A DNA stretch of 37,585 nt, from the UHGV virus genome UHGV-0147806; one strand, given 5' to 3'. Below are positions 11,827 through 37,585 of this stretch, in pieces; the stretch's first letter is position 1, and each line of letters starts with the position of its first letter. A model generated the notes under the pieces. It was not told the DNA's origin and did no database searches. It worked only from the letters and a program-made list of their open reading frames with translations. Source of the stretch: a virus. Both the position numbers and the translations under genes were made by a program.

Positions 11827-12918
11827 GTGGGCGGCGAAACTAAGAATATTGATGAGATTGCAGGTATCATTTCCAGTAGAATTTTTGATGAGTTAGGCTG
11901 GAAAACCCAAAATACAACGGATATAAGTTGGGACTGTTGTTTGAGATCTCATCTAAACGCTAAACAACTTTTATCTGAAAACCCAAAAAAAACTCATCCT
12001 ACGGATGTAGTCTTCAAATATAAAGATCCTTATTCAGATATAACTCAGTATATACAAACAGATTTAAAATCTTATTGTGCCAGCACGCTTGACGGTACAA
12101 AATCAATATTGAACACTGTACGAAGTTTATCACAACAGGTAGCTTGCGCGCCAAGAAGTCCTGAGTGGCGGCGTTTATTTGTTGACAGCACAAATGAGAA
12201 ATATCAAGTTAACGGCCTACTTTTTATATATAATCATGACAATAAATATGACTCTGATTTAATTGAGAAATTAAATGGAGCAGCCACAGCAAGTTATGAT
12301 TTTCCAGAGAACTCTGTGATTGCCGTTTTTGACCCAACTATGATCAGATTTTTACTAGATGTTACAGAACACATCGAGACTAGAAGAGGAATTACTGACA
12401 AAGTAACACAAGAAACAAATATGTTATGGCAAAAAATTCCTGAGATAGAGAACTGTACATATTTTTACCCTGACAAACATAATAAAATAGCAACGAAAGG
12501 GAAAATCCTTCCAGCCACAATTGAAATGATAACATCTGGGATGATTTTTTACTCATATGAACACGAATATATTAGAAATGATGGTGGCGATAGAATAAGA
12601 AATAAAATATTGAATATATTCTGGAAGGAAGAGGTTGATTCCAGTAACCACTTTATATTTCTTTTAGAGTATATATTTAACTATCAATTACTCAATCAAT
12701 TTGACAAAATATTTGTTATAACTCCGTTCTCATCACACTCAAGCATTCATTTGCAATCCGCCATTAATGATTACATAGGAATATATTCTTTCACTCAATC
12801 TCATATAGAAACGTTAAAGGAAAAAATAGTATCCATTCCTTTTGTTAATCAAAAGCTATCTATATTTGAGTACCAGGTTGCCAGCAAGCAGGTGAATAGA
12901 AAATGTCACTTTTCATAA
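11827..12918 (+). CDS. Hypothetical protein A of AT-rich three-gene accessory operon (363 aa, GTG start)
   Basis: GTG at 11827 preceded by GGAGGA; AT-rich codon usage; no motif I can recognise with certainty. Confidence 0.7.
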   Translation: MGGETKNIDEIAGIISSRIFDELGWKTQNTTDISWDCCLRSHLNAKQLLSENPKKTHPTDVVFKYKDPYSDITQYIQTDLKSYCASTLDGTKSILNTVRSLSQQVACAPRSPEWRRLFVDSTNEKYQVNGLLFIYNHDNKYDSDLIEKLNGAATASYDFPENSVIAVFDPTMIRFLLDVTEHIETRRGITDKVTQETNMLWQKIPEIENCTYFYPDKHNKIATKGKILPATIEMITSGMIFYSYEHEYIRNDGGDRIRNKILNIFWKEEVDSSNHFIFLLEYIFNYQLLNQFDKIFVITPFSSHSSIHLQSAINDYIGIYSFTQSHIETLKEKIVSIPFVNQKLSIFEYQVASKQVNRKCHFS

Positions 12919-12928
12919 GGAGTATGAC

Positions 12929-14176
12929 ATGAATAAATATCAAGCTACGTTGTTTTCAAACGAAAGTGACATTTATACCGCCCTCCACTCTAACAGTGCA
13001 AAAATCACAGATGTTACATTAAGGAAAATCGCCTTCAATAGAGGGATAATTTTCCCATCTAACTTATCAAAAGAGGTATTGATAGAAAAATTATCAGACC
13101 TGCCATTTTCATATAATCACATCAGAGAAGTACAAGATAAACTGGCAACCAAACCCAGCCAAGACGTCTTCTCAGTAAAACGTATATATGAAGAATTTGA
13201 TATAGAGAAACTCTATGACGTTGTAAACAAAGTGAAAGAAAATAGACCCAAGTTGCTAGGGCATGAGAAAATTGATCATTACTCAGGCTTGCAAACCTAT
13301 CATATATCTATTGATTATACTGAGTTTGATTTTAGAAGGGGTAAGTTTCAGCAGAAAAAATTGTACAGTGGGAGTATAGTTTTTATAGTAAAAAAAGGAT
13401 ATGTTTCAGTAAGATATAACTATACGCCACGCATTTCAGAAATTCTCAAGCAAATAATTGATACATATTCATCAACAGTTTGTAACAACATAGTTGTCAA
13501 CGAAATAGATTTATCAAGTATCGTCGATACAGATCTTAGGAATATTTTTGCTGTTCATCTTTATGATTTTGATGGAAATTATAAAAAAACAGGACTTGAA
13601 TATGCTGGTCTTGAAAAGGTTAGAGTAAGCAGAATAAAAACATCTCTGGATATTAATGGAGATAATCTCGAAGGAAATAATAACGAAGAAACACAAGAGT
13701 TATTAAACAAGATTTCACCTTCTACAGATAACGAAAATGATGATGACATTAATAATCAGGAAATGGCATCTGACGATGATGAAAACCTAACTTTTAACAT
13801 TAACAATGCCGCGTATGATGGCCTATCATTAGTGAACGCACCTCAAATTAAGGAACTGTGCAGTGATGGGTTTTATCGAAGCTTAATTCGATGGAAGTCA
13901 TTTTCCTCAGTAGTTAAGAATCATACTATAACTTTTGAACTTAGTTTCGATGATAAATATCTTGGGAAAAATATAAAATTCAGAGCGTTATACAAAGAAA
14001 GCAACTCTGCATCCGCAGAGAGAGAAAAACTCAGTGACGCAGACTTTGATCAAGTCATGAAACAATTAGAAGATAAAATATTTTTGATTAATGACTTTAT
14101 TATCGAAGAGCATACCAAGCGATACCCAGTAACGAAAGCTATGTCTTGCGAGACTTTGAATCAGGAGGCTGGATGA
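12929..14176 (+). CDS. Hypothetical protein B of accessory operon (415 aa, acidic low-complexity linker)
   Basis: ATG after AAGGAG, 10 nt downstream of gene A; DNENDDDINNQEMASDDDEN linker. Confidence 0.7.
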   Translation: MNKYQATLFSNESDIYTALHSNSAKITDVTLRKIAFNRGIIFPSNLSKEVLIEKLSDLPFSYNHIREVQDKLATKPSQDVFSVKRIYEEFDIEKLYDVVNKVKENRPKLLGHEKIDHYSGLQTYHISIDYTEFDFRRGKFQQKKLYSGSIVFIVKKGYVSVRYNYTPRISEILKQIIDTYSSTVCNNIVVNEIDLSSIVDTDLRNIFAVHLYDFDGNYKKTGLEYAGLEKVRVSRIKTSLDINGDNLEGNNNEETQELLNKISPSTDNENDDDINNQEMASDDDENLTFNINNAAYDGLSLVNAPQIKELCSDGFYRSLIRWKSFSSVVKNHTITFELSFDDKYLGKNIKFRALYKESNSASAEREKLSDADFDQVMKQLEDKIFLINDFIIEEHTKRYPVTKAMSCETLNQEAG

Positions 14177-14829
14177 TGATAAAGGTAAAAATTTATAAAG
14201 CAGAAAAGGATATAACTAAAAGTGAGTTATTACATAAAGTAAATGACAACCTCTATGATGAAGATAAAGGATATGGTTTTCAAATCATTAATAACTCTGA
14301 AGTGCTTAAACTAAGATTTACCATGAGAAGCATTAGCAAGCAAAGCTTAGAATATGCTAATGGCGAGCGTTCAGAGGTTGAAATAGCAACTTACTTAAAT
14401 GTGGACTTTGGCGTCAGACAAGGGAAAAAAATCATACTATATGCCACTAATCCTCCATTAAGTATGAAAGTGCCTTATACTATGGTGCAAAAACTATTTG
14501 GTGAAGATAGTGGCTTGAGACCAGTAGAATTTGATCTGAGAAAAATTGTAAATGGTCTTTCTGAGGGCTTTGACATCAAGATAAAATCCATGTCTCTATC
14601 TAATATCTCTGTTGATCCTTTTACTTTAGCAAAGACAAAAATAGTAAGCTCAAAGAATCTCCAAGAAATTTATCAGAATAAATACATGAATAGTTCGGCC
14701 GTTTTTGATTCCGTACATTTCTTCGTTAACGGAATTGAAACGGAATTATCTAGGACGGGTAGATTCCGTGTGAGAGAGAGTCAGCTTCCAACACTTTTAT
14801 CCATCTTAGAAACTCTCAGAATTTTGTGA
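14173..14829 (+). CDS. Hypothetical protein C of accessory operon (about 218 aa)
   Basis: ATGATG start overlapping the gene B stop (ATGA), preceded by AGGAGG; strong intrinsic terminator follows. Confidence 0.65.
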   Translation: MMIKVKIYKAEKDITKSELLHKVNDNLYDEDKGYGFQIINNSEVLKLRFTMRSISKQSLEYANGERSEVEIATYLNVDFGVRQGKKIILYATNPPLSMKVPYTMVQKLFGEDSGLRPVEFDLRKIVNGLSEGFDIKIKSMSLSNISVDPFTLAKTKIVSSKNLQEIYQNKYMNSSAVFDSVHFFVNGIETELSRTGRFRVRESQLPTLLSILETLRIL

Positions 14830-19069: not shown

Positions 19070-19498
19070 ATGGGTTTTCGTAGCGCATCAATTCTTACGT
19101 TGATTATTAGTGGGATTATTATCGGGTGCACTGATGCTGTATCGACAAATTATCATGACCGTACATCATATTACTCCGATAAAGCAATAGAGACACAGTA
19201 TGTGAGTTCATCTGAACGTACTTCTGATGTTAGTGAGGATATCCGTCTGTATGCCCATCAAATCAAGAGCGCCATCGAAAAACAGTTCGGGGATGCGAGT
19301 AAGTATTCAGGAAAAGAGTGTACACTGAGAATGCATATGGCCCCGAATGGCCTTCTACTGGAGGTTAAAAGAGAAAGTGGAGACCTCGATTTATGTCGTG
19401 AAGCGATGAATGCGATAAAGAATGCTGATATACCTGCCCCCCCTTCGCCGGAAGTATATAAAGTATTTCAAAATGGGGTGCTGGATTTTAAACCCTGA
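19070..19498 (+). CDS. Lipoprotein with TolA domain III-like C-terminus (142 aa)
   Basis: Lipobox IIIGC; C-terminal region closely resembles the E. coli TolA C-terminus as I recall it; GAGGA RBS. Confidence 0.75.
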   Translation: MGFRSASILTLIISGIIIGCTDAVSTNYHDRTSYYSDKAIETQYVSSSERTSDVSEDIRLYAHQIKSAIEKQFGDASKYSGKECTLRMHMAPNGLLLEVKRESGDLDLCREAMNAIKNADIPAPPSPEVYKVFQNGVLDFKP

Positions 19499-23201: not shown

Positions 23202-23990
23202 ATGAGCGAGAAATTAAAGATAGTCTATCGCCCATTACAAGAATTGTCACCGTATGCGCACAACGCCAGGACGCACAGTACTGAGCAGGTGGCACAACTG
23301 GTAGAAAGTATTAAGCAATTCGGCTGGACTAATCCGGTGCTGATTGACGAAAAGGGCGAAATTATTGCGGGTCACGGTCGTGTTATGGCGGCTGAAATGC
23401 TCAAAATGGATTCTGTTCCGGTCATTGTTCTGTCTGGCCTGACGGATGAGCAGAAAAAGGCGTACCGCCTGGCAGATAATCGCCTGCCGATGAATGCTGG
23501 CTGGGATGAAGATCTGTTGCGGATGGAGCTGTCGGACCTAATCAATGCTGATTTTGATGTCTCCCTGACAGGCTTCATCCCGGCAGAAATTGATGAACTG
23601 TTGACGGATGTTTTGCCCGGTACAGGAAATGAGGAGGAGCCGTATACGACGAAAATTGATACGCCTGTTTATGAGCCGTCAGGCGGTAAACCGGATATCA
23701 GTGAACTGTACGACGATACGAAAACTCAGGAGCTGATCAGCCGGATACGTTCGGCGTCCCTTGATCCTGATATTGAGAAATTCCTCCTGTGTGCAGCAGA
23801 ACGTCACACGGTGTTTAATTTCAGCAGAATTGCGGACTATTACGCTCATGCCCCCGCTGAAATTCAGTGCCTTTTCGAGGAGTCGGCGCTGGTGATCATT
23901 GATTATCAGCAGGCTATTGAAAATGGATTTGTCCGAATGACGCAGCGCATGGTGGAGATCATGCATGGCGGGGAGGAGGAATATGCGTGA
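23202..23990 (+). CDS. ParB-like nuclease domain protein (262 aa)
   Basis: ParB N-terminal-type motif region (VLIDEKGEIIAGHGR); located upstream of the terminase genes. Confidence 0.7.
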   Translation: MSEKLKIVYRPLQELSPYAHNARTHSTEQVAQLVESIKQFGWTNPVLIDEKGEIIAGHGRVMAAEMLKMDSVPVIVLSGLTDEQKKAYRLADNRLPMNAGWDEDLLRMELSDLINADFDVSLTGFIPAEIDELLTDVLPGTGNEEEPYTTKIDTPVYEPSGGKPDISELYDDTKTQELISRIRSASLDPDIEKFLLCAAERHTVFNFSRIADYYAHAPAEIQCLFEESALVIIDYQQAIENGFVRMTQRMVEIMHGGEEEYA

Positions 23991-24915
23991 TGATTTTTGC
24001 GCCTTTATTCTGACTCACGGGCGACCGGACAAAGTTCTGACTTACCGGACGTTGCGTCGTGCTGGCTATACCGGGAAAATTTTTATCGTTGTTGATGATG
24101 AAGATAAGACACGGCATCAGTACATGGCTGAATTTGGTGAACAGGTGCTGGTATTTTCCAAAGCCGATATTGCTAGTCGTTTTGACGAAGCCGATAATTT
24201 TAGTGACCGCCGCTCAATTTTTTACGCCCGTAATGCCTGTTTCGACCAGGCAAAACTGGTCGGGTGTAAATACTTCATTCAGCTCGATGATGATTATCAC
24301 GAGTTCCAGTTTCGGGTGGATCGCAACTATGACCAGGCCTATTTCCCGATAAGGAAACTGGATGAGATCCTTTCTGAAATGCTTGCGTACTACGAATCAA
24401 TACCTGCTCTTTCCATCGCTATGTCGCAGGGCGGGGATTTTCTTGGTGACAATGGCGGCCATGCTTCGTGGGTGAAACGCAAGGCAATGAACAGCTTTAT
24501 CTGTTCGGTTGATCGACCGTTCTCATTCATGGGGCGCATTAACGAGGATGTGAATACGTACACGAATCTCGGTCGCTGTGGTGAATTGTTTATGACGATC
24601 GGTGCTGTCCAGTTAGGGCAGAAACAGACGCAGAAAAACAGCGGCGGAATGACCGAGCTGTATCTGGATTCCGGAACCTACGTTAAAAGTTTTTACTCCG
24701 TCATGTATGCGCCGTCGTGCGTAAAAATCTCACTTATGGGTGCCAGTCATAAACGCATTCACCATCAGGTCACCTGGAACAACGCTGCAGTAAAAATCCT
24801 TCACGAAAAATACAGGAAGAAGACACCCTGCATATCAATGGGGGTGACAAATGATTCCGTATTCGAAAGTCGAGTCTCTGGCAGCGTGCCGGATGACTGC
24901 ACAACAAATCGCTGA
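23983..24915 (+). CDS. Hypothetical protein, possible GT-A-fold glycosyltransferase-like (about 310 aa)
   Basis: ATG after GGAGGAGGA, overlapping the ParB-like stop; IVVDDEDK and QLDDDY (DxD-like) motifs; function inferred only. Confidence 0.4.
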   Translation: MRDDFCAFILTHGRPDKVLTYRTLRRAGYTGKIFIVVDDEDKTRHQYMAEFGEQVLVFSKADIASRFDEADNFSDRRSIFYARNACFDQAKLVGCKYFIQLDDDYHEFQFRVDRNYDQAYFPIRKLDEILSEMLAYYESIPALSIAMSQGGDFLGDNGGHASWVKRKAMNSFICSVDRPFSFMGRINEDVNTYTNLGRCGELFMTIGAVQLGQKQTQKNSGGMTELYLDSGTYVKSFYSVMYAPSCVKISLMGASHKRIHHQVTWNNAAVKILHEKYRKKTPCISMGVTNDSVFESRVSGSVPDDCTTNR

Positions 24916-26200: not shown

Positions 26201-27197
26201 TGTGCCTCAGGCGCGATTTCTTTCAATGCCCCATAAATTTAAAGCCTATATTGCTGGTTTTGGCTCGGGCAAAACATGGGTTGGGTGTGGCGGCATATGC
26301 AAGGGGATTTGGGAGCATCCAGGTATAAATCAGGGATATTTTGCGCCAACGTATCCCCAAATTCGCGATATTTTTTACCCTACAGTGGAAGAAGTTGCTG
26401 CTGACTGGGGATTGAACGTAAAAATTAATGAGGGAAATAAAGAGGTTCACTTTTATTACGGACGCCAGTATCGGGGAACCACTATCTGCAGATCGATGGA
26501 GAAGCCACAAACGATCGTCGGTTTCAAAATTGGTAATGCGTTGGTGGATGAACTGGACATTTTGCCGAAGGAAAAAGCCAGAACGGCGTGGCGCAAGATA
26601 ATTGCACGTATGCGTTATAAGATTGATGGACTTCGCAACGGTATTGACGTTACAACCACGCCGGAAGGATTCAAATTTGTCTACGAGCAGTTTGTTAAAG
26701 CCGTGCGTGAAAAAACAGAGCTGGCCTCACTGTATGGTCTGGTGCAGGCATCTACTTTCGATAATGAAAAGAACCTGCCAGCAGATTACATTCCTTCGCT
26801 TCTTGAATCATACCCTCCAGAGCTGATTAAAGCCTATCTTCGAGGACAGTTTACTAACCTGACAAGTGGTACTGTTTACCATCAGTTTGACCGGAAACTG
26901 AATAATTGCGAAGAAGTGGAGCAGCCAGGGGAGCCGATTTATATTGGGATGGATTTTAACGTTGGAAAGATGGCGGGAATCGTCCATGTGCTGCGTTTGG
27001 GGCTTCCATGTGCGGTAACTGAAATCATCAATGCCTACGATACGCCGGATATGATCCGCATCATTAAAGAACGCTTCTGGCTGTATGATGGGAATGATTA
27101 CCGGAAAGTGAGGGAAATTTATATTTATCCAGATGCTTCCGGGGATTCCAGAAAATCAAGTAACGCAAGTACGACGGATATAGCCCAGCTTAAGTAG
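26172..27197 (+). CDS. Terminase large subunit, N-terminal 341 codons ending at an in-frame amber TAG
   Basis: Walker A-like AGFGSGKT; ORF ends at TAG 27195-27197 although the same frame continues for 95 more sense codons. Confidence 0.8.
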   Translation: MMKMISPTLNVPQARFLSMPHKFKAYIAGFGSGKTWVGCGGICKGIWEHPGINQGYFAPTYPQIRDIFYPTVEEVAADWGLNVKINEGNKEVHFYYGRQYRGTTICRSMEKPQTIVGFKIGNALVDELDILPKEKARTAWRKIIARMRYKIDGLRNGIDVTTTPEGFKFVYEQFVKAVREKTELASLYGLVQASTFDNEKNLPADYIPSLLESYPPELIKAYLRGQFTNLTSGTVYHQFDRKLNNCEEVEQPGEPIYIGMDFNVGKMAGIVHVLRLGLPCAVTEIINAYDTPDMIRIIKERFWLYDGNDYRKVREIYIYPDASGDSRKSSNASTTDIAQLK

Positions 27198-27482
27198 GCT
27201 GGTTTTAACGTTGTGGTGAACAGCTCGAACCCGCCAGTAAAAGATCGCGTTAACTCAATGAATGCAATGTTCTGCAATGCCAATGGTGAGCGTCGCTATA
27301 AAGTTAATGTGAAGCGTTGCCCGTTATATGCCGAATCTCTGGAGCAACAGGTCTGGGATGAGAAGGGGGAGCCTGATAAAAAATCTGGCAATGATCACCC
27401 GAATGATGCCGGAGGTTATTTCATCGTTAAGCAATTCCCTATTGTCAAACCGACCGGAAGAGTCACATCACTTCGGATTTAA
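27198..27482 (+). pseudogene. Terminase large subunit C-terminal continuation, downstream of the in-frame TAG
   Basis: Same frame as 26172..27197; combined length about 437 codons, typical for a large terminase. Confidence 0.6.
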
Positions 27483-27484
27483 TT

Positions 27485-28891
27485 ATGGCTGATATATCAA
27501 CACCCAACCTCGACTATAACGATATGCTGGAGGCGTGGGATATTAACGACGCACTGATGGGCGGTACGCTTGAAATGCGCAGGCAGGGGGAAAATTATCT
27601 CCCAAAATGGCCTAACGAAGATGAAGACGCTTATAAAAAACGCCTGTCTGTGGCTACGCTACTTCCTGTGTATGAAGAAAGCATCAAGCAAAATATTGGG
27701 CGCATATTTGCAGAGCCGACAGTATTGAGTGAGGAAACGCCGGCAAAAATCAGGGAATATGCAGAAAATATCGACATGGAGGGGAGCCGACTGGATGTGT
27801 GGGCACAGCAATTTTTCAGCCTCGCATTTCAGTATGGTGTGGCACATGCGCTGGTGGACTATCCACGAACGGATATGAAAGAGATTCGGACAAAAGCCGA
27901 TGAAAACGCGACCGGTGGTCGTCCGTACGTTACGATGCTGAATCCACGCCAGGTTATTGGATGGAAATCGAAAGTTGAAAAAGGGAAAGTTGTTCTCACT
28001 GATTTGCGTATAAAAGAGGTCATCATTATTGATGGTGATGATTTCGGGCAGAAGAAGGTGGAGCAGATCCGCCATATTATGCCCCGTCGAGTTGAAATTT
28101 ATCGACGTAGCGAAGGCACTAATGGCGAATCTGTCTGGACGCTTCATGAGTCATGGAATACCAGCCGTGATGATATTCCTCTGGTAACACTGTACACGAA
28201 GAAAACAGGATTTATGCGTGGTACACCGCCATTGCTTAATCTTGGCTTGCTGAATATCAAGCACTGGCAAAGCCAGAGCGAGCAGGACAATATTCTTCAT
28301 GTTGCCCGCGTTCCATTGCTGGTGGCCTACGGGCTGGACAGGAATGAAGAACTGACGGTTGGTGCATCCACCGCTACGATTTTTGAGGACAGAACAAAAA
28401 ATGGCCTCGAATATGTTGAACATAGTGGCGCAGCGATAGAATCTGGCGAAACATCACTTGAGAAGCTGGAAAATCAGATGCGTCATGCCGGCGCTAAACT
28501 TCTGCGTGCTGAAAATACATCCACCAAATCTGTTGATCAGACTAATGAAGAGCGAATGCAGGAAAACTCGCCGCTTTATACAATGGCGAACTCCCTCGAA
28601 GATGCCCTCGATAATATTCTCCAGATAATGGCGGAATGGATCGGAGAGAGTTGCGGTGGCAATGTGGATGTGCGCACTGAACTGGATGTATCTGCCCAGG
28701 TGTTTGACTCATCCTCCGCGCTGGCTGTTCAGTCATTGCGTCAGGGCGGTGATATACGTCAGATTGATGCGGTTCGGGTGTTGCAGGCGTTGAAATTTAT
28801 CGATCAGGATTCCCGTCCAGAGGAAGTGATCGATGAATTAAAAAATCAGAGTGTAATGCTGATGGAAATCAATGATGCAAACCGTGAATGA
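27485..28891 (+). CDS. Portal protein (468 aa)
   Basis: Size and position immediately after the terminase. Confidence 0.7.
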   Translation: MADISTPNLDYNDMLEAWDINDALMGGTLEMRRQGENYLPKWPNEDEDAYKKRLSVATLLPVYEESIKQNIGRIFAEPTVLSEETPAKIREYAENIDMEGSRLDVWAQQFFSLAFQYGVAHALVDYPRTDMKEIRTKADENATGGRPYVTMLNPRQVIGWKSKVEKGKVVLTDLRIKEVIIIDGDDFGQKKVEQIRHIMPRRVEIYRRSEGTNGESVWTLHESWNTSRDDIPLVTLYTKKTGFMRGTPPLLNLGLLNIKHWQSQSEQDNILHVARVPLLVAYGLDRNEELTVGASTATIFEDRTKNGLEYVEHSGAAIESGETSLEKLENQMRHAGAKLLRAENTSTKSVDQTNEERMQENSPLYTMANSLEDALDNILQIMAEWIGESCGGNVDVRTELDVSAQVFDSSSALAVQSLRQGGDIRQIDAVRVLQALKFIDQDSRPEEVIDELKNQSVMLMEINDANRE

Positions 28892-29987
28892 ACGGCTGCG
28901 TGATGAATCAATTGCTCATGCAGTCTGGATATCCCGCTATAGCACTGGCGTGGCTGCCAGAATGGTGAAAATACTGAATGACAGCGATGCGGAACTTACT
29001 GCTCGCCTGCTGATAGCACTGGACAGCCTCGATCCAGGTAGTTTTACCGTTAAGCGCCTGGAGTCACTTCTGGCGAGCGTCAGAGAGGTTAACCGCACTG
29101 CTATTAACAGCATGTTTACCAGTCTCTCCGGAGAGCTGAACGAGCTGGCAATTTATGAGGCTGGTTATCAGTTAAGTCTGTTTGATTCTATGCTACCTGA
29201 TTTTGTTGCTGATGTTCACCCTCTGGTTGGTATCTCTCCTGATGCACTTTATGCCGCTGCAATGGCGCGACCATTCCAGGGACGACTGCTCAGTGAGTGG
29301 ACCTCAGATCTTGAGGCGGATCGGCTCAGACGCATAACAAATACAGTGCGTCAGGGTTTTTTGCTGGGGGATACCAATGAGCAGATCGCAAGAAAAATTC
29401 GGGGACATGTCAGTAAGGGATTTCAGGATGGTGCATTGCAGATGAGCCGGGCTAATGCGGCCAGCATTGCAAAAACAGCGGTTGGACATCTTGCTGCTAC
29501 TGCCCGTGAGAGTTTTGCCAGCGCGAATAATGATTTGATTAAGGGTAAGCAATGGTTATCAACGCTTGATAATCGTACTACGCCACAATGTCGAATCAGG
29601 GATCGCCTCAAATATACGCTGAATAATAAACCTGTAGGTCACAGCGTGCCTTATTTGCAGGGGCCGGGAAAAATTCATTTCTGCTGCCGCTCAACGGAAA
29701 CGTTCATTCTGAAATCAGCGAAGGAACTGGGTATTGATGTTCGCGATATTTCCCCGGCTGAGCGGGCCAGCATGGATGGCGTGGTGGCCGGAGATACAAC
29801 CTACAGGGAATGGTTTTTGCGTCAGCCTTACACCAGACAAAAACAGATTGTGGGGGAAAGCCGAGCAAAGCTGATTCGGGATGGTGGTATGTCGCCAGAT
29901 GAATTTTACACCGATAAAGGCGAATGGCTGACGCTGAAGCAGCTCCGTGAGCGTGATGCACAGGTATTCAGAAAAGCAGGGATTTAA
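28872..29987 (+). CDS. Head morphogenesis protein (Mu F / SPP1 gp7-like, 371 aa)
   Basis: Position after the portal, overlapping its 3' end. Confidence 0.65.
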   Translation: MMQTVNERLRDESIAHAVWISRYSTGVAARMVKILNDSDAELTARLLIALDSLDPGSFTVKRLESLLASVREVNRTAINSMFTSLSGELNELAIYEAGYQLSLFDSMLPDFVADVHPLVGISPDALYAAAMARPFQGRLLSEWTSDLEADRLRRITNTVRQGFLLGDTNEQIARKIRGHVSKGFQDGALQMSRANAASIAKTAVGHLAATARESFASANNDLIKGKQWLSTLDNRTTPQCRIRDRLKYTLNNKPVGHSVPYLQGPGKIHFCCRSTETFILKSAKELGIDVRDISPAERASMDGVVAGDTTYREWFLRQPYTRQKQIVGESRAKLIRDGGMSPDEFYTDKGEWLTLKQLRERDAQVFRKAGI

Positions 29988-30006
29988 ATAAATCATTTAT
30001 TACAAC

Positions 30007-30031
30007 AGGCTACCTTCGGGTGGCCTTTTTT
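30007..30031 (+). terminator. Intrinsic terminator-like hairpin between head morphogenesis and scaffold genes
   Basis: GGCTACC-ttcg-GGTGGCC (one G-U pair) followed by TTTTTT. Confidence 0.6.
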
Positions 30032-30091
30032 ATTGCTGCGATCCGGATGGTGAGCAGCGTAACTGTCGGAAGACTTAAACCAGGTACTAAT

Positions 30092-30856
30092 ATGAAACTG
30101 AAAACGGTCGAGATTAACGGAAAACAATACGCAGAAATTGATACTGCTGGCCTGCCAGTTTATGTGCACGACGATGGTAAAGAAATTGGCTTCGATGCAC
30201 CGCTGGCGACAAAAAAAATTACAGAGCTTAATGGCGAGGCAAAAAATCATCGCCTGGCTAAAGAAGCTGCAGAGGAAAAACTGGCTAAGTTTGCCGCTAT
30301 CGAAGACCCGAAGAAGGCGATCGAGGCACTGGAAATGCTGTCAAAAATCGACCAGAAAAAGCTGCTCGATGCGGGACAGGTTGACCAGGTTAAGGCAGAA
30401 ATTACGAAAAATTTTCAGCAGCAATTAGATGAAGAAAAGCAACGCTCTCAGATGCTGGAGAAGCAGCTTTACGATTCTATGATTGGCGGTAGTTTTGCGG
30501 GTTCAAAATATATTGCCGATAAAATTGCGATCCCGGCAGATTTATTACAAGCCCGCTTCGGGCAGGCATTCAAAGTGGAAGAAGGGAGGATCGTTGCTTA
30601 TGACGCTTCCGGCAACAAAATTTATTCCCGCGCGAAGCCTGGCGAACTGGCGCAGTTTGATGAGGCGCTGGAGTTCCTTGTCGAAAATTACCCTCAGAAA
30701 GACTACATCCTGAAAGCCAGTGGCAACAATGGCGGCGGCTCCCGTCCGACACAGCATGATATTGGTCAGAAAACGATGAAACGCTCTGCTTTTGATGCAC
30801 TGGATGTTGCAGGTAAGCAAAACGCATTGAAAGACGGTATCACAATCGTTGATTAA
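30092..30856 (+). CDS. Scaffolding protein (about 255 aa, coiled-coil rich)
   Basis: ATG at 30092 downstream of the terminator; charged coiled-coil segments (EAAEEKLAKFAAIEDPKKAIEALEML ...). Confidence 0.6.
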   Translation: MKLKTVEINGKQYAEIDTAGLPVYVHDDGKEIGFDAPLATKKITELNGEAKNHRLAKEAAEEKLAKFAAIEDPKKAIEALEMLSKIDQKKLLDAGQVDQVKAEITKNFQQQLDEEKQRSQMLEKQLYDSMIGGSFAGSKYIADKIAIPADLLQARFGQAFKVEEGRIVAYDASGNKIYSRAKPGELAQFDEALEFLVENYPQKDYILKASGNNGGGSRPTQHDIGQKTMKRSAFDALDVAGKQNALKDGITIVD

Positions 30857-30954
30857 CACATTTGTCAGCTTCCGGATGGGAGCTGGTGTCAGGGCTGGAT
30901 AGCTCATTACTCCATCTATTCACAATTACGCAAATTTTTAAGGAATATTTAATT

Positions 30955-31527
30955 ATGGCTGGAAATACCCTGACCGGGTTGATCCCGACTATTTATACCG
31001 CCCTGGATGTTGTATCCCGTGAGCAGGTAGGTTTTATCCCTGCGGTAGCAAAAAACGCAAAAGCTGACGCCGCAGCAAAAGATCAGACGGTAACCGCGCC
31101 AGTTGCGCCTGAGGCGAAAACCGAAGATATCGTACCGGGGCCGTCAGCTCCGAATACCGGTGATCAAAATATTGGCACTGTTGATGTAAAAATTACTAAA
31201 TCCAAAATGGCACCGGTTAAATGGAATGGTGAAGAACAACTGGCTCTTGGCCCTTCAGGGACTTACAACACCATTCTGGCTGATCAGTTCAAGCAGGCTT
31301 TTCGCGCCCTTGCAAACGAGGTTGAGGCTGATCTTGGTGCGTTGTATTTCGGTGCTTCCCGCGCCGTGGGAACCGCAGGGACAACGCCGTTTGGTGTTAA
31401 AGATGATCTTTCTGATGCTGCTCTGGCTCGTCAGGTTACCGCAGCAGATGAAGCACCTACGATAACCAGAAAAAAAAATTCCCCGGCTGCCGTGATCGCA
31501 AAAGCCAGTGCTGAGGCGATTAGTTGA
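30955..31527 (+). CDS. Capsid-like protein, short (190 aa); possibly a 3'-truncated major capsid gene
   Basis: ATG after AAGGAATATTTAATT; occupies the position expected for the major capsid gene but is too short for one. Confidence 0.35.
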   Translation: MAGNTLTGLIPTIYTALDVVSREQVGFIPAVAKNAKADAAAKDQTVTAPVAPEAKTEDIVPGPSAPNTGDQNIGTVDVKITKSKMAPVKWNGEEQLALGPSGTYNTILADQFKQAFRALANEVEADLGALYFGASRAVGTAGTTPFGVKDDLSDAALARQVTAADEAPTITRKKNSPAAVIAKASAEAIS

Positions 31528-31575
31528 TTTTCCGTTATTCCTCCTGTGGTACTGCCCTACAGGGGGACGCATTGA

Positions 31576-32037
31576 ATGAGGTTATGGATGTTTATTCTTA
31601 ATCAGAAAATTATCATTGGTGGAGAACGCTGGTTTACGCCAATGAAGGACTTAAAACCTGTAGACGGGTTAAAACTGTTGGTGGCAAGCAGCGATAACGA
31701 TCAGTATCGCTCCCGTAATGCATTAATCCGTCGCCACATTGAGAAAATGGATGCCAGTTTGCACGTCGGAACGAAGGAGTTTGATATTTCAAAGGTTTCC
31801 GAGGTGGATTCTGTTGATGATTTACTCATTGATAATGCCGCTCGTTATCTGCTGAAAGACTGGAAAGGGGTTGGTGAACTGGTTAATGGTGTTGAGGTTG
31901 CACTGGAATATACGGCAGAACGAGGGATCGCGCTGCTTAAGCAGAATCCAGAGTTGTACTGGCAGATCCTTGCAGAAGCAGCCAGCATCGCCCAGGGTAA
32001 AGAGCAGCAGAAGCAGGATACGATAAAAAAGCCATAG
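31576..32037 (+). CDS. Tail assembly chaperone (lambda G-like, 153 aa)
   Basis: Located directly upstream of the tape measure gene; ends two codons after an A_AAA_AAG slippery heptamer. Confidence 0.65.
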   Translation: MRLWMFILNQKIIIGGERWFTPMKDLKPVDGLKLLVASSDNDQYRSRNALIRRHIEKMDASLHVGTKEFDISKVSEVDSVDDLLIDNAARYLLKDWKGVGELVNGVEVALEYTAERGIALLKQNPELYWQILAEAASIAQGKEQQKQDTIKKP

Positions 32038-32345
32038 CTGCCCAGCGGTGGTTATCGGAGTTCGGGGGAGAAAGGGGGGAAAAGGCAAGATGGAAGCGAG
32101 AAAAACTCAGGTTGCCACCGATACCGGAACCAGAAATAGACCCGGTGCTTAAGGAGTTGTTGTACGCCTATTCGGTAATATCCCGTGCCCGACGTTATGC
32201 TGGAATGGCTGGGGTGCCTTTGCCTTTATCTCTGACAGAGATAAATGAATATTTAGCCACTCATCCGGTATTGATTGAGCGCGATGAATTTGAAGCAGTG
32301 ATCTTTGCACTGGATGACCAGTATTTTCAGGAGCAGTGTGTGTAG
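31576..32345 (+). CDS. Tail assembly chaperone G-T fusion produced by -1 frameshift at 32025-32031
   Basis: Hand translation of the -1 frame gives ...AIAAQRWLSEFGGERGEKARWKREKLRLPPIPEPEIDPVLKELL...QEQCV*; the G/G-T arrangement upstream of a tape measure gene is conserved in long-tailed phages. Confidence 0.55.
32025..32031 (+). promoter_or_regulatory. Slippery heptamer A_AAA_AAG for -1 programmed ribosomal frameshift (G to G-T)
   Basis: Heptamer is in register with the G frame; the -1 frame is open from 32001 to 32345. Confidence 0.65.
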
Positions 32346-32465
32346 TTGTTAATTACGTACACTCTGTTACAGAGATGTGATGGTGTCTTTAATTAAATCG
32401 ATGATGCTCCTGGAGAAAAGCATTGCGTGGCCTCGTAATCGCTATATCTACTATTATGTCGCCTG

Positions 32466-32490
32466 AAACCCACTTCGCGGTGGGTTTTTT
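32466..32490 (+). terminator. Intrinsic terminator-like hairpin between G-T and the tape measure gene
   Basis: AACCCAC-ttcgcg-GTGGGTT followed by TTTTTT. Confidence 0.55.
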
Positions 32491-32510
32491 GTTGTCAGGA
32501 GTTTTAATAA

Positions 32511-35500
32511 ATGGCAGAGCAAACCTCGCGTCTCGCAATAATTATTGATAGCACTGGAGCGAAAAATAATGCTGACAATCTGACCTCCTCATTAGTCAAA
32601 ATGACGCAGGCTGGGGAAACTGCTGCAAATAGCGCAGGGAAAGTGACTAAGGCAACAGAAGATGAGAAGAACGCGCTCGCAAAATTAAAAGCAGCTATTG
32701 ATCCAGTTGGTGCCGCAATTGATACTGTCGGTCGACGCTATTCTGAATTAAAGAAATTTTTCGATAAAGGGCTTATTGATAAAGAAGAATATGAATTTCT
32801 TGTCCGTAAACTTAATGAAACCACAGAGGAATTGAGCGGGGTTGCGCAAGCGCAGAGAGAAGCCGAGAAGGCCGGAAAACTTGCTGCCGCCCAGCAGGAA
32901 GCGCAGGCTCAGGCCTTTCAAAGAATGCTGGACAAGATCGACCCTCTGGCTGCGGCGCTAAGAAATCTTGAACAACAGCATGATGAACTTAATGCTGCGT
33001 TTGCATCCGGGAAAATAAATGGTTCTCAGTTTGAGAATTATAGCCGAAAAATACAGGAAACACGGCGAGAGCTTACCGGAGAGGCTCAGGCAGAGCGAGA
33101 AGCAGCAAAAGCGCATGATGAACAGGTTGTTGCTTTGCAACGTCTGATTGCTCAACTTGATCCTGTCGGAACTGCTTTTAATCGTCTGGTAGAACAACAG
33201 AAACAGCTCAATGAAGCAAAAGCTAAGGGGATGCTTTCTCCTGAAATGTATGAGGAGCTTTCTGGAAAACTTCGTGCTATGCGGAGTGAGCTTGAGGTTA
33301 CTCAATCACAATTAAGCAAAACCGGAATGTCGGCAAAACAAACGGCTTTTGCTATGCGCATGTTGCCTGCACAAATGACGGATATTGTTGTTGGGTTGTC
33401 CACTGGTCAGTCGCCATTTATGGTGTTAATGCAGCAGGGCGGCCAGCTAAAAGATATGTTCGGTGGGATTGGCCCGGCGATCAAAGGTGTAGGTTCTTAT
33501 GTGCTGGGATTAATTAATCCTTTTACCCTGGCCGCAGCAGCCGTTGGGGTCTTAGGACTGGCTTACTATAAAGGCTCTCAGGAGCAGGACGAATTTAATA
33601 AATCTCTTATTCTTACCGGAAATCAGTTGGGGACAACCAGCGGGCAATTGGGCGATATAGCTCAACGTGCCGGGAATGCGGCTGATTCGACAACTGGTGC
33701 TGCGGCGGCAGTATTAAATCAGCTTGTGCGTTCGGGAAAGGTAGCGAGCAGTTCGCTGGAGCAAGTGACGACAGCGATAGTAAAAACGAGCGAAGTAACA
33801 GGAATATCAACCGAACAACTGGTTAATGACTTCAATGAAATTGCAAAGGATCCTGTCAGTGCCATATCAAAACTTAATGATCAGTACCATTTTCTGACAC
33901 TTGCGACTTATAACCAGATTAAGGCGCTACAGGATGAAGGGAACCAGCAGGAGGCCGCCCGCATTGCGACAGAAGAATACTCATCCTCAATGATCCAGCG
34001 CACCAACCAGATTAAAGAAAATCTTGGTTATCTTGAGACTGCATGGAAAGCTGTCGCAGACTCCGCAAAATGGGCATGGGATTCCATGCTGGATATTGGC
34101 CGTGAGGCCTCCCTTGATCAAAAAATCTCAGATGTTCTCCGTCAAATTGATGAAATAGAAAAAAATACCCGACCCGGAGTTTTCGGGTTAGGTGGCATTG
34201 GAGATGGCGGAGCTCAAAATAAAAGGCTGGCACGATTAAAGCAGCAATTGGGCGTACTTCAAGCAGAAAAAATTGCTCAGGACGTACTAAATTCATCAAT
34301 AAACGATTACAACAAGCGACAACAGGAAGGAATTGAACTCAGACAGAGAGCAGATGCCTTTTCAAAACAATATCAGACCCGGGAGCAGCAGAGAGCTAGT
34401 GAACTTGCAAAACTGGAAAAGCTAAAGAATCAGTATTCAAAGGAAGAATATAATAATCTTATCGCTCAAATAAATGAGCGTTATAAAGATCCAAAGCAAC
34501 CAAAGGCGAAAGGTTATTCTGATGATGCAGCCCAACGAATGATTGATCATCTGAATCAACAGAATGCGTTACTAAGTTCACAAGCTGAGTTGACCGTTAA
34601 ATTAAGTTCCTCTGAACAGGAACTGGTTAAGTGGCGTCAGCGGATTGCCGACCTAGAGTCACGACCATCATCGAAATTAACCCAGGATCAGAAATCGCTT
34701 CTCTTACACCGGGAAGAAATAACCACGTTGATGGAGAAAAATGTTGCGATTGAAAAAAATAACAGGCTAATCAAGGAATCCGCCGAAATAACAGCATGGC
34801 GTGATTCATTGCAGGCTTCGATTGATAATCGTCAGCAGGGGTATGATATTCAGATTGCTGGTTATGGGGTTGGCGATAAAAATCAGCAACGCCAGCAGGA
34901 ATTACTGCGGATTGAACATGGATATAACAATCAGCGTCTGCAACTTGAACGTGACTATGCAGATAAATCCCGTGGAATGTCAGATCATGTTTTTCAAGAG
35001 AAAATGCAGGCTCTGAATGATGCTCTGGAACGGGAAAAAGAAATTGTCAGACAGAAAAACGAGCAGCTCGATATTCAGGCAGGAGACTGGGTTAGTGGTG
35101 CCTCCCAGGGATTCAATAACTGGCTGGATGACACTAAGGATATCAGTGAGCAGATAAAATCAACCACGACTCAGATGTTTGATGGGATGACCGATGCGCT
35201 GGGTGATTTTGTCACGACAGGCAAGGCAAATTTTCGTTCTTTCGCTACTTCCGTGATTTCGGATCTTAGTCGAATAGCATTAAAGGCTTCAATTACTGGG
35301 ATTATCGACAGCATTAGTAACAGTTCTTCTGGGGGGATTTTAGGAACTATCGGGAGTGCTATTAGTAAATTTATTCCGAATGCAAAGGGCGGTGTTTATG
35401 AGTCTCCGTCATTGAGCACGTATTCGAACGGTATTTATGATTCCCCGCAATTTTTTGCTTTTGCAAAAGGGGCTGGTGTTTTTGGTGAGGCTGGACCGGA

Positions 35501-35744
35501 AGCCATTATGCCATTAACACGAACTTCCGATGGTTCTCTTGGTGTCAGAGCTATTAATAGTAAAAGTGGTAATGGAGGCGGAGATATTACCTATGCCCCT
35601 GTATACCAAATCACTATTCAAAATGACGGCCAGAATGGAGAGATTGGCCCTCAGGCAATAAAAGCACTTATGGGGATGGTTGATCAGCGGGTGCAGGGCA
35701 ATCTGTTAAATATGCGACGTGATGGGGGAATGTTAAGTGGCTAA
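32511..35744 (+). CDS. Tail tape measure protein (1077 aa)
   Basis: Very long, coiled-coil-rich ORF after G/G-T. Confidence 0.9.
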
Positions 35745-36075
35745 TACGGAAGAATTTCACTGGTTACCAGAGGATGGAATGAAAACAGAAAATAAACCAT
35801 CGATAAAAACTGTAAGATTTGGTGATGGTTATGAGCAACGAAGTCCAAATGGACTTAATCATTCTCTGCGCGTTTTCACCTGTGATTTCAAAGTTGAGGC
35901 GAATGAACGTGATTCATTTGAAAAATTTTTAGCCCGGCATGAAGGCTATAAATCTTTTTTTTGGCGCCCGCCGGGTATTAACAGAAAAATCAGAGTGGTG
36001 TGTCGAACGTGGTCAGCGACAGAACATATCACCTATACCGATTTTTCGTGTCAGTTTGACGAAGTGGTGATCTGA
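35737..36075 (+). CDS. Minor tail protein M (lambda M-like, 112 aa)
   Basis: Overlaps the tape measure stop; [12 protein letters not shown] motif resembles lambda M as I recall it. Confidence 0.8.
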
Positions 36076-37001
36076 TGCAGGACATACAACAGGAAACGCT
36101 GAATGAATGCATTCGTGCGGAGCAGTCGGCCAGCGTGGTGCTCTGGGAAATCGACCTGACCGAGGTAGGCGGGGATCGCTACTTTTTCTGCAATGAGCAG
36201 AACGAGAAAGGAGAGTCTGTCACCTGGCAGAGTCGGCAGTATCAGGCCTATCCCATTCAGGGGAGTGGATTTGAGATGAACGGCAAAGGTGCCAGTGCAA
36301 GGCCAACGCTGAAAGTCTCTAATCTGCACGGCATGGTCACCGGGATGGCGGAAGACCTGCAGAGTCTGGTCGGCGGAACGGTGGTCAGGCGTAAGGTTTA
36401 CGCCCGTTTTCTGGATGCGGTGAACTTCGTCAACGGAAACAGTGACGCCGATCCGGAGCAGGAGGTGATCAGCCGCTGGCGTATTGAGCAGTGCAGCGAA
36501 CTGAGCGCGGTCAGTGCCTCCTTTGTACTGTCCACGCCGACGGAAACGGACGGCGCTGTTTTTCCGGGGCGCATCATGCTTGCTAATACCTGCACCTGGA
36601 CCTATCGCGGTGATGAGTGCGGTTATCACGGTCCGGCGGTCGCGGATGAATATGACCAGCCAACGTCCGATACCCATAGTGTTAGCGGTACGGCTGCTTC
36701 AGCCGGTGCACATACCCATTCGATAACATTTGTTTCAGGTGGCACCAAAGGTGCTCCGGGAAGTGGATCACCTGATTATTCTAAATACAGTGTTAACACT
36801 TCTTCTGCAGGCGCTCATACGCACTCTGTATCGGGTACTGCTGCAAGCGCAGGTGCACACGCACATACTGTAGGTATTGGTGCGCATACGCACTCCGTTG
36901 CGATTGGTTCACATGGACACACCATCACCGTTAACGCAGCTGGTAACGCGGAAAACACCGTCAAAAACATCGCATTTAACTATATTGTGAGGCTTGCATA
37001 A
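36075..37001 (+). CDS. Chimeric ORF: lambda L-like minor tail protein (residues 1-199) fused to a side-tail-fibre C-terminus with His-x-His repeats
   Basis: N-terminal two thirds closely resemble lambda L as I recall it; after QPTSD the sequence switches to GAHTHS repeats ending [11 protein letters not shown]. Confidence 0.75.
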
Positions 37002-37585
37002 TGGCATTCAGAATGAGTGAACAACCACGGACCATAAAAATTTATAATCTGCTGGCCGGAACTAATGAATTTATTGGTGAAGGTGATGCATATATTCCGC
37101 CTCATACAGGTCTGCCAGCAAACAGTACCGATATTGCACCGCCAGATATTCCGGCAGGCTTCGTGGCTGTTTTCAACAGTGATGAGGCATCGTGGCATCT
37201 CGTTGAAGACCATCGGGGTAAAACGGTTTATGACGTAGCGTCAGGGGACGCGTTATTTATTTCTGAACTCGGTCCGTTACCGGAAAATGTTACCTGGTTA
37301 TCGCCGGAAGGGGAGTTTCAGAAGTGGAACGGCACAGCCTGGGTGAAGGATACGGAAGCAGAAAAACTGTTCCGGATCCGGGAGGCGGAAGAAACAAAAA
37401 ACAACCTGATGCAGGTAGCCAGTGAGCATATTGCGCCGCTTCAGGATGCTGCAGATCTGGAAATTGCAACGGAGGAAGAAATCTCGTTGCTGGAAGCATG
37501 GAAAAAGTATCGGGTATTGCTGAACCGTGTTGATACGTCAACTGCACCTGATATTGAGTGGCCTACGAACCCTGTCAGGGAGTAA
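37001..37585 (+). CDS. tfaR: Tail fibre assembly protein (TfaR-like, 194 aa)
   Basis: The translation matches my recollection of Rac TfaR; start overlaps the upstream stop. Confidence 0.85.

Follow-up and report, generated by a model that had tools for sequence, protein, structure and literature searches.

The Rac prophage of E. coli K-12 keeps stfR-tfaR, and its head and tail genes are lost. Large late-region deletions with a surviving stf 3' end and tfa are the pattern in the decayed Rac and Qin cryptic prophages of E. coli. Two proteins of the lambdoid tail are of particular relevance for the locus described here. The tail tip protein L of lambda (gpL; PF05100, TIGR01600, PDB 8IYK chain L) has a C-terminal domain that binds a [4Fe-4S] cluster via Cys173, Cys182, Cys205, and Cys212 (PMC10721106). 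The lambdoid side tail fibre Stf, which is encoded next to tfa, ends like T4 gp37 (PDB 2XGF), the partner of gp38, in a needle with H-x-H iron-binding motifs, and folding of the gp37 needle depends critically on its seven irons (PMC6957217).

The window, i.e., the whole stretch of 37,585 nucleotides that was analysed, is a Rac-family E. coli prophage with intR, recT, and recE on the left, trkG, a late region of P22-coat and lambda-tail type, and tfa at the right end. It ends exactly at the tfa stop codon. The family and the integration region (intR, recET, trkG) are those of the decayed Rac and Qin prophages, and the late region has suffered the same kind of large deletions with survival of the stf 3' end and tfa. 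Unlike in these prophages, the deletion has different end points and its joint is in frame, so that a full-length-looking ORF results. Unlike in K-12-type Rac, the right flank carries sitABCD where K-12 Rac has pinR-ydfK. We consider it highly probable that this ORF is a scar of prophage decay, left by an illegitimate deletion of about 8.3-8.7 kb in a Rac-family prophage and inherited clonally, and that its product most likely has no function.

The 308-aa ORF was confirmed in the window (Table 1) and consists of the front of L and, joined to it in frame, the last 109 codons of stf. Residues 1-201 match lambda L (PDB 8iyk_L, E 2e-125), and the L families are recognised far above their cut-offs, i.e., PF05100 (Phage_tail_L) over aa 29-201 with 279 bits (cut-off 25) and TIGR01600 with 283 bits (cut-off 70.75). 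The domain is however not full-length, as the matches cover positions 1-174 of 206 in the PF05100 profile and 2-193 of 224 in TIGR01600. In the same way the alignment to 8iyk_L extends over residues 1-201 of 232 only, which leaves the C-terminal iron-binding domain incomplete. Residues 200-308 are the C-terminus of E. coli Stf, as found in strain E275a; they contain five H-x-H motifs, and aa 232-308 match the C-terminal 77 residues of T4 gp37 (PDB 2xgf_A, E 2e-25). The initial annotation had described an ORF that follows lambda L over residues 1-199, then switches near position 36672 to an H-x-H repeat region with the C-terminal end of Stf, and is followed by tfa. All of this was borne out: homology to L stops at residue 199, the remainder equals the E275a Stf C-terminus, the breakpoint lies at 36670-36672, and the intact chimeric ORF is indeed accompanied by a complete gene for the assembly chaperone.

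Table 1. Coordinates of the chimeric ORF, its neighbours, and the other lesions in the window.
Feature	Position	Strand	Evidence
Tail tip gene M, 112 aa, intact	35737..36075	+	Pfam Phage_min_tail E 1e-31; WP_000024051.1 context identical in relatives
Chimeric ORF L(1-199)::Stf(last 109 aa)	36075..37001	+	ORF list; Pfam, NCBIfam, and PDB matches; three-way alignment
L-derived segment, codons 1-199	36075..36672	+	100% identity to L of 181.1, EC2, and SW071619
Deletion junction, 3-bp microhomology ATA common to both parents	36670..36672	.	Three-way alignment of window, EC2 L, and E275a stf
stf-derived segment, Stf 899-1007 of 1007 aa	36670..37001	+	Native stf frame, native stop
tfa, tail fibre assembly chaperone, 194 aa, intact	37001..37585	+	Pfam Caudo_TAP E 4e-44; annotated tfaR in relatives
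Nonsense codon in large terminase gene terL, Q339*, CAG to TAG	27195..27197	+	Codon-by-codon comparison with EC2 terL
Second scar, in-frame fusion of major capsid protein aa 1-161 with last 29 aa of tail tube protein	30955..31527	+	

The ORF is thus like lambda gpL over residues 1-199, which are collinear and almost identical, and in its place after M with the same translational coupling: the start codon of the chimera and the stop of M overlap (TGATG). Unlike gpL it is without the last 33 residues, Cys205, Cys212, and the partner genes K, I, and J, and a foreign tail of 109 aa is added. Of the gene order M-L-K-I-J, M is present, and neither the window nor any carrier contig has K, I, or J. 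With lambdoid Stf and T4 gp37 the ORF shares the 77-residue needle match, the H-x-H motifs, the C-terminal end, and the adjacent chaperone gene, the start of which overlaps the stop of the chimera (TAATG), so that both parental overlap signals are kept. It differs in keeping about 11% of Stf and in having no N-terminal tail-attachment domain, shaft, or collar. The exact 308-aa protein has been deposited as 'phage minor tail protein L' (EES4406322.1 and other NCBI accessions).

The two parental genes are separate in intact relatives (181.1, EC2, E275a, SW071619, and NCTC10444), which carry M, L (232 aa), K (a C40 peptidase), I, J, lom, stf, and tfa and share the chromosomal site. The site is defined by trkG upstream and by sitDCBA, uspF, ompN, and nifJ downstream. 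In all carriers and relatives the tfa stop is followed after about 213 bp by the iron/manganese transporter operon sitDCBA, which lies on the opposite strand. Stf of the relatives is 1007-1133 aa long and annotated as 'prophage tail fiber N-terminal domain-containing protein'. Compared to these relatives the window is without the 33 final codons of L, the whole of K, I, J, and lom, and approximately the first 898 codons of stf, which is the internal deletion that had been proposed for it. By the coordinates, 8,273 bp are missing when E275a is taken as the reference, 8,346 bp with NCTC10444, and 8,698 bp with EC2.

NCTC10444, in which every structural gene is intact, is the closest intact relative, with 99.93-99.96% identity over 27027-36672. 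On the right side 17 mismatches were found, all of them within the stf tip or the 5' half of tfa (window 36809-37246), and beyond mid-tfa into sitD and sitC there were none in 3,080 bp. Differences confined to 36809-37246 between near-identical flanks have the appearance of the footprint of a swapped host-range cassette. The stf-tip/tfa cassette is notoriously mosaic. E275a carries this type of stf-tip/tfa allele at the same locus and is 97% identical to the last part of the window, from 36670 onward. An exact copy of the parental stf-tip allele was not present in any of 5,426 complete E. coli genomes, the best match being 98.1% identical. The parent would therefore presumably have been an NCTC10444-like prophage with a different stf-tip/tfa allele.

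When the 5,426 complete E. coli genomes were searched by megablast, the L-side matches, up to 100% identical, all ended at 36672 and the stf-side matches all began at 36670, and the breakpoint therefore lies within the ATA at 36670-36672. Across the joint parental L reads ...CCAACGTCCG-ATA-TCACGAAGG... and parental stf reads ...GGTGCGC-ATA-CCCATAGTG..., and the codon phase at the joint is the same in both. The codon for Stf His898 (E275a numbering) is replaced by that for Asp199 of L. Microhomology, which the initial annotation had suggested looking for, is present but amounts to 3 bp only. An overlap of this size is compatible with microhomology-mediated illegitimate recombination without proving it; the probability of at least 3 bp at a random joint is about 0.05 by our own calculation, i.e., the overlap is weakly above random expectation and the mechanism label is a soft one. 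Homologous recombination by RecET or RecA was rejected as the cause because the joint shares 3 bp only. A site-specific invertase (Pin/Cin/Gin) was also rejected, since sitDCBA and not a pin gene follows tfa in this lineage, and since the joint sits inside L, which is not expected to be an invertase substrate.

The marks of a deletion scar are found together at this locus, i.e., parental genes that are separate in intact relatives, an abrupt switch of homology, and other inactivating lesions (see below). We infer that it arose in a single step. One homology-independent deletion in a prophage very like that of NCTC10444 would have joined L codon 199 to stf codon 899 at ATA and removed the end of L, everything from K through lom, and about 89% of stf. 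The joint would be in frame by chance, and translation would begin at the native start of L and end at the native stop of stf, with the untouched tfa next. An origin from two elements, in which a resident L was joined illegitimately to the stf of a second prophage or an infecting lambdoid phage so that the stf tip and tfa are foreign, is improbable. It would account for the stf tip and 5' half of tfa being 95-98% identical to complete-genome relatives when the left side is 100% identical, and exchange of stf/tfa regions between lambdoid phages and defective prophages is known (PMC3945230). However, complete identity to NCTC10444 resumes at mid-tfa and continues into sitD and sitC, as would be expected if the resident allele had been swapped by homologous recombination before or after the deletion. 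In addition, E275a has the allele type at the same locus, and a single internal deletion takes fewer events.

The prophage carries further lesions. The nonsense codon in terL splits the gene into ORFs of 338 and about 89 aa, and the same split is found in other carrier contigs. The second fusion, between the major capsid and tail tube genes, has its joint at 31436-31437 with a microhomology of 2 bp (TT) and lacks 3,327 bp, by which the head-completion, tail-terminator, and tube genes are gone. The initial annotation had stated that no normal tail tip can be built, which is right and understates the case in view of the terL nonsense codon and the 3.3 kb capsid-to-tail-tube deletion. Judged by its gene content, the element cannot be expected to make heads, tails, or tips.

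Comparable scars were found elsewhere. PSJ-16 carries an independent deletion from L to stf, which is frameshifted, and EC21Z-048 an independent deletion from I to stf. In the Qin prophage of 14EC033 the scar lies between L and tfaQ and is likely a K to stf deletion. A search of 5.8 billion proteins gave an independent in-frame L::Tfa fusion (P0052), and its match list contained many singleton fusions of L to other late-gene domains. Deletions in the L-tfa interval are thus recurrent with scattered end points, which is the pattern of decay. Both large deletions in the present prophage are in frame. The chance of this is about 1/9, given 1/3 for a single joint, and it mildly hints at selection against out-of-frame products that are polar or toxic.

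It is most likely that the chimera is non-functional as a part of the virion. Parental L has cysteines at positions 173, 182, 205, 208, and 212, and the chimera has only Cys173 and Cys182, so that two of the four [4Fe-4S] ligands (Cys205 and Cys212) are lost. Of the seven H-x-H motifs in parental Stf, the same number as in T4 gp37, five remain, one having been broken at Stf 898 by the joint (His to Asp), and with Stf residues 899-1007 only, the N-terminal tail-attachment domain and the shaft are missing. The proposed loss of function follows from these losses, i.e., half of the [4Fe-4S] ligands, K, I, and J, the Stf attachment domain and shaft, and two of seven H-x-H motifs, along with the two further lesions. 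By analogy with gp37 (PMC6957217) it is unlikely that the chimera would form a trimeric, iron-stapled needle. The ORF being open is no evidence of retained function, because an in-frame joint has a chance of 1/3 and because an IS element interrupts the ORF in one member of the lineage. The ORF could nevertheless be expressed from the late operon if this is transactivated, as it is uninterrupted and the same in most carriers and is coupled translationally to both of its neighbours.

Isolate assemblies at NCBI and metagenomes at ENA together contain at least 24 contigs (41 index blocks) that encode the exact protein. The carrier contigs are up to 699 kb long, and the chimera is always located between M and tfa-sitDCBA. 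For nine carrier loci, comparison with the window over up to 11.5 kb gave 0-10 mismatches each. Because the carriers are this similar and share the locus, the data indicate one event in one clone, i.e., that the deletion arose once and has been vertically inherited in one E. coli clone. The junction was present in none of the 5,426 complete E. coli genomes, and a second L::Stf protein was not found among the 5.8 billion proteins. In that search six proteins scored above plain L (P0016-P0021), but these were internal tandem duplications of L and not fusions. They are singletons of 261-307 aa on E. coli/Shigella contigs with 30-100 duplicated L residues, and may be real or assembly errors.

In IMG/VR the same junction was found once, in contig UViG_2563366883_000017. 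Here the chimeric ORF is split by a 1,315-bp IS256-family element (contig positions 11091-12405) that encodes a 401-aa Mutator-type transposase and is flanked by an 8-bp target duplication, GCACCTGG, at window-equivalent 36592-36599. This insertion argues against purifying selection on the chimeric ORF.

A benefit to the host that retains the chimera is very unlikely. The chimera could in principle act as a dominant-negative tail-tip subunit against superinfecting lambdoid phages or, together with tfa, as a recombination reservoir for receptor-binding tips. The late genes of a repressed prophage are normally silent, which counts against such a benefit. In its favour are the open ORF, the intact tfa, and the two in-frame deletions out of two. 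Furthermore, the N-terminal hub domain of L, which contacts M and J, is retained (PMC10721106), and relaxed homologous recombination allows lambda to gain stf/tfa sequences from Rac and Qin (PMC3945230). On the other hand, the carriers are a single clone with at most 10 SNPs per 11.5 kb, which gives no power to detect purifying selection, an IS element splits the ORF in one member, the comparable scar in PSJ-16 is frameshifted, and L was the only NCBIfam match of the ORF. It is tempting to speculate that L::Stf and Tfa are expressed when a related lambdoid phage turns on late transcription, and that L::Stf then acts as a dominant-negative hub subunit, but we give this little credence. If true, the L N-terminal domain would be kept and the Fe-S domain replaced by a bulky trimerising fibre fragment that blocks tail-tip assembly of superinfecting lambdoid phages, and a deletion scar would have given rise to a defence.

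Tail tip domains are known to be shuffled as modules among siphophages (PMC10721106), and the ORF might accordingly be taken for a genuine tip-fibre protein of a functional phage, i.e., a hub protein with its own receptor-binding needle. The chance of this is negligible. Intact phages with the same architecture, which the initial annotation had named as the finding that would speak for such a protein, were absent from 50,697 phage records: no place in these covers at least 80% of the chimera, the L matches all stop at residue 199, and no record spans the junction DNA. Nor were homologues with this architecture found among the 5.8 billion proteins. Moreover K, I, J, the tail tube gene, and most of the capsid gene are absent, terL is truncated, and the joint cuts the Fe-S domain and an H-x-H motif rather than falling at domain borders. 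That the ORF resulted from misassembly of a chimeric contig at a repeat can practically be dismissed: E. coli has repetitive tail fibre genes in several copies (median 2-4 matching places per genome), but at least 24 contigs that stem from different projects and assemblers (SPAdes-style NODE, megahit k141, NCBI isolates) share the junction and have consistent chromosomal flanks, and an overlap of 3 bp is far below any assembly k-mer.

A few other regions of the prophage deserve mention. At 11827-14829 (+) three consecutive ORFs of 363, 415, and 227 aa have no Pfam or NCBIfam match and match PADLOC PDLC03004/05/06 'Hp1/Hp2/Hp3' (E 5e-41, 1e-10, and 4e-11), which makes them a candidate three-gene anti-phage cassette. 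They are located at the point, about 11627, at which the closest Rac relatives stop being homologous. At 23202-24915, shortly before the terminase genes, a homologue of the TET-associated glycosyltransferase (TAGT) comes after a ParB-N-like gene, and a small ORF with a TolA C-terminal domain is found near the lysis region (19070-19498).

The L::Stf scar is a fresh instance of the well-known erosion of cryptic prophages and not a new kind of tail protein, and it opens no long-standing question. It does call for caution, as automated annotation names the fusion 'phage minor tail protein L' and prophage finders may credit the element with tail genes. It also provides a base-resolved example of how Rac-type prophages erode by short-microhomology deletions, with survival of the host-range cassette made up of the stf tip and tfa, which is the part with which incoming lambdoid phages recombine (PMC3945230).
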